Assembly (NCBI RefSeq): GCF_054482595.1
Contig: NZ_CM137008.1
Direction: 5' to 3' (one strand)
Length of the DNA: 64,000 nucleotides
The translations under genes were made by a program, and so were the position numbers. The notes beneath the pieces were generated by a model, which saw nothing but the letters and a program-made list of their open reading frames with translations, had not been told where the DNA came from and did no database searches. Positions 34,034 through 35,418 of the stretch are shown piece after piece. Position 1 is the stretch's first letter, and each line of letters opens with the position of its first letter.

Positions 34034-34592
34034 AATAACGTTCCTCTAATGGTAGAGTAATATGATGTATACGGAAACATAAAAATGTTTAATTGTTGTG
34101 AAAGTAATTGCAAACAGATGTCCTATTTTTATCCAATATTTATATGGAAAAGGATAATGCTTAAATCTGTTTTTTTAATTATCGATGTGGTCTGGAGAGG
34201 CAACTGTCAAAAATCGCTCATACGAAACTAATTATTAGCAGAATAAGTTCTATAAAAGAATATATTGCTATATGAAGTTTATTTTTATGGAGTGAAAAGT
34301 AACAGATATCATAATGATGCGAAAACTCTTCAGTTAATGTAATAAACTTATATTATTAGATACAAAATCATTACAAAGTATCATTGAATCGATGATAACT
34401 ATAGATAGTGTTAATTATTAACATTTGCTTGTTGACTGCGAGTATCGACTTTGCGAATGGAGGCGATGTTGGGTTTTATGTCGCATGTATTGACGACCCA
34501 GGATGGATGAGAACGCATAAAAATCTGTTATTTACATCATAAGATCATCATGTTTATTGCGTGGTTTATAAGTATTGTTATTGCATACTTAA

Positions 34593-34668
34593 GGCCCTTT
34601 AGCTCAGTGGTTAGAGCAGGCGACTCATAATCGCTTGGTCGCTGGTTCAAGTCCAGCAGGGGCCACCA
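34593..34668 (+). tRNA. ileY: tRNA-Ile2 (anticodon CAU read as lysidine)
   Basis: GGCCCTTTAGCTCAGTGGTTAGAGCAGGCGACTCATAATCGC...GGGGCCACCA. Confidence 0.88.
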
Positions 34669-35418
34669 AATCATCATTCATGTATCAGGAAGAGTTAAGG
34701 GTACAAGGGGTACTCGATGGCGGTCTATATTTCATGACTAACGCCATTTAAAGGAAGAAGTGCGGTGGGTGGTTTCGAATGAGGGCTGGTGTTTTGGTAC
34801 GTGGCACGCCACTGCAATGTATTTATCCATCAGTACTCATTCAAAAGTACCTGGAAAAAATGCCCGCTATGCCAAGCGGGCAAATTGCTTACATGTGGAA
34901 TTAAGTAATTAACGATAAAGCCAGAGTATTATCATTTATTATACCCATTCATTTAATCAGGTTAATTACTCAAATCACTGAACTATTCTCTGTTCGCTCA
35001 CTGATGATGAGTGAGTACCACAACCAATGTATGTAGAACAATGCCGTAGAGTAAGGATGAAATGTCTCTGCCACGCATTAAACATCTACTACTGACCAGA
35101 ACACCCGCCGCAGGTAGATGAGTCTTGTGAGTGTTACAGAAGCATGGCTATGCTCATTAACCAACTCTAATAGATATAAATTCCTAACACTCGAAAAACG
35201 AATTTCACTAATAAATCATAATGGGTGATTTTTATCATACAGCGAAATAACCTTTTGTTTATTAAATTTAACATTCTTGTGCTTATTTAATTAAAAATTC
35301 CGTGCGTAGCATGTGAAACAGTTAATGTCAGCAATTGTCTCAAATGAGCGATTTTTTATAGTGACAAACAGTAATAACGTTAAAAATAGCCATGAAGACA
35401 TTAACTGAGGAATAGACA

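Follow-up and report, generated by a model that had tools for sequence, protein, structure and literature searches.

The described locus closest to the one analysed here is ileY of E. coli K-12 (b2652), a tRNA-Ile2 gene located between ypjC (b2650) and ygaQ (b4462). In K-12, genomic SELEX showed ileY to be flanked by two RpoD-holoenzyme sites, each flagged as overlapping an H-NS site: at one peak, Shimada et al. predicted an ileY promoter with the hexamers TAGATA and TATCAT, and a second peak lies between ypjC and ileY (PMC3946193). Binding of Hha in vivo was reported near ileY and ypjC (PMC2408971), and an H-NS-repressed intragenic promoter is present within ygaQ (PMC7229825). In K-12 Term-seq data, the mature 3′ end of ileY is the sole 3′ end reported in the spacer, and regions of bicyclomycin-sensitive Rho termination were located at 2785734(−) and 2785647(+) (PMC7815308).

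The core tRNA-Ile2 gene of E. coli is ileX (b3069). In K-12, deletion of ileX requires complementation, meaning that the gene is essential, whereas deletion of ileY does not (PMC11480407). The two genes share an attB sequence, into which ter and SpLE1-like elements insert (PMC8193136, PMC8767318). Recognition of these tRNAs by the E. coli TilS enzyme rests on pairs 4:69 and 5:68, together with features of the anticodon stem (PMC11947777).

The locus, its tRNA, the use of this tRNA for attachment and the H-NS/Hha and Rho context are therefore already known from K-12. The present analysis contributes a correction, namely that ileY belongs to the cargo of a 10.7-kb accessory block instead of marking its boundary, and a modestly new item, a census of ileY alleles.

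The intergenic spacer and its tRNA gene

The DNA analysed is a stretch of 64,000 nucleotides, called the window below. Positions 34034 to 35418 form the whole 1385-bp intergenic gap between a ygaQ-type gene on the minus strand and ypjCB on the plus strand, according to both the list of open reading frames and the RefSeq annotation of E. coli XH990. The start codon of a minus-strand ORF of 750 aa is at 34033, and that of a plus-strand ORF of 484 aa at 35419. A gap of this length is unusual compared to typical E. coli intergenic regions. The segment is 100% identical to XH990, in which an alpha-amylase family glycosyl hydrolase, a tRNA-Ile and DUF5507 (YpjCB) are annotated; window and XH990 match at 99.97% over 30403-49620 and are divergent past that interval. 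The features of this part of the window are the following:

31781..34033, minus strand: ygaQ-type alpha-amylase family gene, intact, 750 aa (pseudogene in K-12 and O157)
34034..35418, no strand: intergenic spacer separating ypjCB from the divergent ygaQ-type gene, orthologous to K-12 2785012-2786396, G+C 0.352
34593..34668, plus strand: ileY, tRNA-Ile2 (anticodon CAU, lysidine-AU after predicted TilS modification), U6-G67 allele, from ARAGORN, Rfam and comparison with K-12
34623..34668, plus strand: 3′ 46 nt of the tRNA (positions 31-76), attB in other strains, from strain 47-1826 and the literature
35419..36873, plus strand: ypjCB (DUF5507), intact, 484 aa (split into ypjC and ypjB in K-12)

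K-12 has the same gene order and relative orientation, read in reverse as ypjC - ileY - ygaQ (pseudogene) - glaH, and its spacer has the same length of 1385 bp, with ~96% identity (~4% different). Both genes flanking the spacer are intact in the window, whereas in K-12 ygaQ is a pseudogene and ypjC/ypjB are split.

The G+C content of the segment is 0.352, compared to 0.485 for the whole window, with values of 0.295 on the left of the tRNA and 0.372 on its right. The genes on either side are as AT-rich as the spacer (0.378 for the ygaQ-type gene, 0.351 for ypjCB), which means that the spacer is part of one continuous low-G+C block; the drop in G+C begins at ~31400-31650. Within the spacer, the longest ORF with a start codon encodes 50 aa and the longest stop-to-stop frame 56 aa, and such an absence of long ORFs is the chance expectation for DNA of 35% G+C. 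A search of its ten longest frames gave no Pfam or NCBIfam match at E≤1, except for one meaningless match of 11 bits. In every sampled genome, the PGAP annotation under the segment match consisted of tRNA-Ile only.

The single tRNA found by ARAGORN occupies 34593-34668 of the plus strand and has a CAT anticodon; it scores 71.6 bits with the Rfam model RF00005 (tRNA), whose gathering score is 29. It agrees with K-12 ileY in all but one of 76 bases (75 of 76; A67G) and equally with K-12 ileX (75 of 76; C6U), with which it shares the CAU anticodon, the TilS identity pairs and the attB sequence. RefSeq calls it tRNA-Ile, and its identity fits the known E. coli tRNA-Ile2 genes rather than tRNA-Met. 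The synteny ygaQ - tRNA - ypjC/ypjCB, together with the U at position 6, designates the ileY locus rather than ileX. Pair 6-67 is U-G in the window, compared to U-A in K-12 ileY and C-G in ileX. A sequence-only reading of this segment had described it as very AT-rich, with no convincing ORF on either strand and a single tRNA, taken for tRNA-Ile2 (ileY) with one acceptor-stem base changed to give a U-G wobble pair; all these points were borne out.

The predicted minimum-energy fold of the tRNA is a cloverleaf (z = −3.5). Its energy is −33.8 kcal/mol with U6-G67, and −34.1 kcal/mol for the K-12 allele, which gives the same cloverleaf, so that the window allele is predicted to be structurally neutral, at a cost of 0.3 kcal/mol. 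Pairs C4-G69 and C5-G68, on which TilS recognition relies, are present in all seven alleles compared, and every allele retains an intact anticodon loop and CCA end. The U6-G67 tRNA is predicted to have its C34 converted to lysidine by TilS, after which it would be charged with isoleucine and read the rare AUA codon.

In our reading, to which we give a probability of about 0.8, the segment is the known E. coli ygaQ-ileY-ypjC(B) intergenic region, situated inside a 10.7-kb low-G+C accessory block, with the U6-G67 allele of ileY, an accessory second tRNA-Ile2 gene, as its only gene and with weak expression, H-NS/Hha binding and Rho termination resembling those of K-12. We propose that the remainder of the spacer, beyond ileY, holds the divergent promoters of ygaQ and ypjCB.

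ileY alleles across complete E. coli genomes

For each allele, exact matches over all 76 nt were counted in 5,426 complete E. coli genomes, with the following results:

K-12 allele: 1727 records
O157 allele (U42, C43, C44): 375 records
KOr021 allele (A28-U42, fully compensated): 261 records
2022N21 allele (A28 opposite C42, mismatch): 186 records
MEC2025 allele (U6-G67 plus C43): 166 records
Window allele (U6-G67): 147 records

These six alleles total 2862 of the ~2970 ileY carriers (~96%). The window allele is not private, being one of at least six, and its carriers include O145:H28, O169:H41 and EAEC 042. In contrast to this polymorphism of ileY, the core copy ileX was almost invariant, with exact matches in 5022 records. 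The variable pairs of ileY are 6-67 (C-G-like, U-G or U-A), 28-42 (G-C, G-U, A-U or A-C) and 27-43 (G-U or G-C). Most of the changes preserve pairing, either as G-U intermediates or, for A28-U42, with full compensation. The A28-C42 allele did not give a cloverleaf in the minimum-energy prediction. Judged by its letters, the window allele appears to sit between ileX (C6-G67) and K-12 ileY (U6-A67).

A search for outgroup ileY genes with the 5′ 41 nt as query, among 100,044 species representatives, returned only a Serratia symbiotica tRNA, and the ileY alleles are therefore treated as unpolarised. The tRNA-Ile2 of Serratia symbiotica likewise has U6-G67.

The sequences flanking the alleles are mosaic. 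Genomes of the 2022N21 type have KOr021-like DNA upstream of the tRNA (7 differences over 400 bp) and MEC2025-like DNA downstream (4 over 350 bp), and the window allele combines O157-like upstream flanks with a tRNA body resembling that of ileX and K-12. Such mosaics mean that recombination or gene conversion has shuffled ileY. A single crossing-over as the origin of the A28-C42 allele was rejected, as A67 is incompatible with one crossover. Nor was there support for the idea that integrative elements left the allele differences behind as scars: the element-derived 3′ part of ileX differs at positions 50, 59, 60 and 64, and not at 42-44 or 67.

One may go further and regard ileY as an accessory tRNA gene that recombines, is under relaxed constraint and has functionally different alleles. 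We consider this unlikely. If true, the U6-G67 allele would represent a compensatory substitution caught at a living intermediate stage. If, in addition, the alleles differed in stability or in the efficiency with which TilS or IleRS handle them, strains would differ in their capacity to decode AUA, and hence in the expression of AUA-rich, H-NS-silenced island genes.

The alleles of the census could be used as a small natural series for the study of compensatory evolution and of TilS/IleRS tolerance. The census also fits the published puzzle that ileY is unable to replace ileX. This inability in K-12, together with the number of ileY alleles set against a nearly invariant ileX, the mosaic flanks, and the 186 genomes whose A28-C42 mismatch abolishes the predicted cloverleaf, could also be explained if ileY were a decaying, functionally impaired copy, in which U6-G67 is a drift step under relaxed selection and not part of a working tRNA. 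We find this explanation quite improbable. Pairing is kept by most of the changes, no allele has lost its TilS identity pairs, anticodon loop or CCA end, and the U-G pair costs just 0.3 kcal/mol in the predicted fold. Moreover, ileY RNA is detected in K-12, and rare-codon helper plasmids, pACYC-RIPL for example, rely on cloned ileY as their working AUA tRNA.

Expression of ileY and transcription of the opposite strand

Our reading of the segment as the known ygaQ-ileY-ypjC(B) region includes a K-12-like mode of expression, for which the relevant features are:

34357..34384, plus strand: candidate ileY promoter TAGATA-16-TATCAT, 9/12 consensus match, ~200 nt upstream of the tRNA, the best plus-strand site upstream
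34669..34800, plus strand: putative zone of Rho-dependent termination of ileY read-through; K-12 2785734(−) corresponds to window 34696 (Rho score 3.6, p=2e-10)
34700..34852, minus strand: putative zone of Rho-dependent termination of minus-strand transcripts; the K-12 "orphan" 2785647(+) corresponds to window 34783 (Rho score 3.9, p=1.6e-6)
34853..34882, minus strand: terminator-like hairpin with an 8-bp stem (6 G-C pairs) and a 6-nt loop, followed by TTTTTT, from terminator scan and fold
35335..35362, plus strand: candidate ypjCB promoter TTGTCT-16-TATAGT, conserved inside an otherwise variable stretch, overlapping the right arm of inverted repeat I1

The flanks of ileX consist of a TTGCGA-17-TATAAT promoter with a GC-rich discriminator on one side, and a hairpin with a T-run terminator on the other. 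Those of ileY are unrelated to them, and contain neither a canonical adjacent tRNA promoter and discriminator nor an intrinsic terminator. The candidate ileY promoter of the window has the same hexamers as the one predicted at the K-12 SELEX peak. That ileX is essential and ileY dispensable in K-12 fits a weak expression of ileY. The gene is nevertheless not fully silent in that strain, as its 3′ end is detected by Term-seq.

Low G+C (0.35, compared to 0.485) and patchy distribution (of 5426 complete E. coli genomes, 2866 have the full segment, at ≥80% of its length) are what is expected of acquired DNA silenced by H-NS, and the segment shares both with the H-NS/Hha-silenced, Rho-policed DNA of E. 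coli. The K-12 orthologue adds H-NS-overlapping holoenzyme sites, Hha binding and Rho ends on both strands. Two differences should be kept in mind: this region additionally carries a transcribed tRNA gene, and its silencing features are those known from the K-12 orthologue. By analogy with K-12, ileY in the window strain would be weakly expressed inside AT-rich DNA bound by H-NS and Hha, and its read-through would be terminated by Rho. For spurious transcripts of the opposite strand, the stop may be the hairpin with its T-run (34882-34853), Rho, or the two together.

The suggestion that the segment contains silenced promoters was thus upheld in part. The K-12 SELEX sites overlapping H-NS, the Hha binding and the ygaQ promoter, all observed at the orthologous spacer, speak for it, but promoter-like sites in the spacer did not exceed the number found in shuffled sequences (6 found, against 8.6 +/− 3.3 in the promoter/terminator scan). 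The accompanying suggestion of unannotated small RNAs was not supported: Rfam reported only the tRNA, the K-12 Term-seq data contain only the 3′ end of ileY, and promoter sites are not enriched. The Rfam search covered 31-38 kb at permissive E-values; a sub-threshold match to plastid-ycf2 on the reverse strand was discarded, as it corresponds to the tRNA read backwards.

The most specific form of the small-RNA proposal involves the hairpin. This hairpin (34861-34882 in the window) has a perfect stem in 4 of the 7 strains compared, window included, whereas K-12, O157 and P276M show a C-A mismatch in the minus-strand stem. A minus-strand RNA of ~75-80 nt could be transcribed from the promoter TTAACC-16-TATAAT (34965-34938), with its start at ~34931 and its end at the hairpin and U-run (34882-34853). 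Promoter (10/12 match) and textbook intrinsic terminator are on the same strand with the right spacing, 34762-34961 is the least diverse stretch of the spacer, and K-12 has some minus-strand transcription. However, three of the seven strains have two substitutions within the −10 hexamer, and three have the C-A mismatch in the stem. Beyond the hairpin, the RNA folds no better than shuffles (z = −1.67), and it has no Rfam match. No 3′ end was reported at the hairpin in K-12 Term-seq, where transcripts continue to the Rho site. As for low diversity, equal levels (0.014-0.03) are found elsewhere in the block, and 34762-34961 was rejected as an exceptionally conserved element. We therefore judge such a small RNA very improbable; most simply, the hairpin would insulate ileY from antisense transcription.

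Edges of the accessory block and codon use

The low-G+C DNA around ileY has the following limits:

31645..42391, no strand: accessory block ygaQ-ileY-ypjCB-pinH remnant-ypjA; its edges are the true core/accessory junctions, with the G+C drop at ~31400-31650

In nearly half of E. coli, the entire block is missing as one piece. Where ileY is absent, homology with the window breaks off at ~31644, on the left of the ygaQ-type gene and just past the glaH promoter region. In FDAARGOS_1293, glaH is 682 bp from ssrA, and 150 bp of the spacer in between match 42392-42541, just after ypjA, which is the only other counterpart of the interval. The end of homology at ~31644 and the proximity of glaH to ssrA place the segment in the interior of accessory DNA, ~2.4 kb inside a block of 10.7 kb. 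Further on, 42541-49574 holds a P4-like remnant, distinct from the block and integrated at ssrA. In BL21-type strains, a different ssrA island and an IS1 are found where the block would be, and in another strain an IS2 is inserted 172 bp into the spacer, the remainder of which is replaced. Diversity is 0.1-0.5 on the right of ~35000, into ypjCB.

The sequence-only reading had held that the segment marks the junction between the core gab/csiD genes and island DNA. This did not stand, as the boundary is at ~31644 and ygaQ and ileY are missing together. Rather than a boundary marker, ileY is part of the 10.7-kb accessory block.

The same conclusion bears on whether the segment is an island boundary anchored by the tRNA, with ileY as attB, core DNA on its left and acquired DNA starting at its 3′ end. 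Transfer RNA genes often flank islands, strain diversity climbs sharply on the right of ~35000, and ileY does serve as attB elsewhere: a P4-like element of strain 47-1826 (integrase, primase, Icd-like) lies directly against a copy of tRNA positions 31-76 whose start corresponds to window 34623, and integrase, repeat and empty-site form of an occupied attB were all found. The same 3′ part of the tRNA is the attachment site of tRNA-anchored elements at ileX and ileY (SpLE1-like elements, ter islands, P4-like satellites) in other strains. In the window, in contrast, ileY is unoccupied, and the nearby P4-like remnant (42541-49574) is at ssrA instead. No integrase is adjacent to ileY in the window and no repeat of the tRNA 3′ end flanks it. 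The ygaQ-type gene on the left is equally AT-rich, and genomes without the downstream DNA also lack ileY and this gene, homology stopping at 31644 and glaH adjoining ssrA. A tRNA-anchored boundary at ileY is accordingly extremely unlikely.

Other origins considered for the spacer did not hold. A transposon-like structure or long inverted repeat around the tRNA was rejected, as the flanking inverted-repeat pairs are not nested. The view of the right half of the spacer as a decayed phage or integrase remnant was rejected, since it had no match in 50,697 phage records. Its plasmid matches were confined to the tRNA, three mislabelled chromosomes aside.

A small protein encoded downstream of ileY, for instance by the 41-codon ATG ORF at 34779-34904 on the plus strand, is extremely unlikely: the stretch is conserved and 3 of 4 substitutions in the ORF are synonymous among 7 strains, but four substitutions are too few for a test, three open frames overlap there, no family matches (Pfam, NCBIfam), no CDS is annotated at this place in K-12 or any other genome examined, and the ORF lies within the Rho-terminated zone.

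Genes of the accessory DNA contain 12-43 ATA codons per 1000. For the core genes in the window the figure is mostly 0-7, with a maximum of 17, and AUA is 4 to 10 times commoner in the surrounding island genes than in these core genes. It is a reasonable reading of this correlation that ileY is an accessory AUA-decoding tRNA gene travelling with AUA-rich genes.

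ileY alleles and the occupied ileX site

The accessory tRNA-Ile2 gene ileY (window 34593-34668, plus strand) is polymorphic in E. coli, at tRNA positions 6, 28, 42-44 and 67. Six alleles make up about 96% of carriers, with 1727, 375, 261, 186, 166 and 147 exact copies in complete E. coli genomes, and among them are G-U intermediates as well as a fully compensated A28-U42 pair. One of the six, present in 186 complete genomes and represented by strain 2022N21-074-17 (L008, 3560-3635), has A28 facing C42, a mismatch in the anticodon stem; the cloverleaf is predicted to be lost in its minimum-energy fold. 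The flanks of this allele are mosaic, being KOr021-like upstream and MEC2025-like downstream.

For ileX, the core tRNA-Ile2 gene, 5022 records among complete E. coli genomes held an exact copy, which was missing from about 400 chromosomes. At the mug-ileX locus of strain CFIAFB20190157 (L014), ileX is occupied by an island that carries cbtA/cbeA as well as antirestriction genes. The tRNA found there (4001-4076) carries C50U, G59A, U60C and G64A, so that U50-A64 is a compensated pair. These four changes were probably brought in by the att site of the inserted element.

ileY-like tRNAs beyond the E. coli chromosome

A tRNA identical to the U6-G67 ileY allele of the window is carried by pJIE250_3, an IncY, P1-like phage-plasmid (L016, 4001-4076), between tellurite/colicin-resistance genes and a dnaB-like gene; tRNA-Asn and tRNA-Thr are its neighbours there. 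In all, 843 plasmid records gave a match, the tRNA being just 80-90% identical in most of them. Only one other species representative, Serratia symbiotica (L013, 5010-5085, minus strand), shares the first 41 nt of ileY, and its tRNA-Ile2 is also U6-G67.

Genes flanking the ileY spacer and a repeat within it

The ygaQ-type gene of the alpha-amylase family (31781-34033, 750 aa) is intact in the window, whereas K-12, O157 and several other strains carry it as a pseudogene. The state of ypjCB also depends on the strain (intact, split, frameshifted or IS-disrupted), and among seven strains diversity rose within 35000-36300 from about 0.03 to 0.1-0.5 over the ypjCB promoter region and gene. The two divergent genes each have upstream of them one arm of a 26-nt inverted repeat (34203-34228 and 35337-35362, 81% complementary, core ATGAGCGATTTTT), so that the motif reads the same way in front of either gene; the right copy overlaps the promoter-like site of ypjCB. 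The repeat may be a regulatory site shared by the two genes, or may be due to chance.

DNA between ypjA and ssrA

The 150 bp following ypjA (42392-42541) match DNA that, in a strain without an island, adjoins the 3′ end of ssrA; in the window, they are separated from ssrA by a P4-like remnant.

Content of the P4-like remnant (window 42541-49574)
AbaSI-family restriction endonuclease
primase and Psu pseudogenes
AAA ATPase and HNH endonuclease pair
integrase pseudogene

The match of the window to XH990 ends at 49620, 37 nt into the 3′ end of ssrA (49583-49945), where XH990 has a further element with RloB-family and AAA ATPase genes. We conclude that the window stems from a close relative in which the occupancy of ssrA is different.
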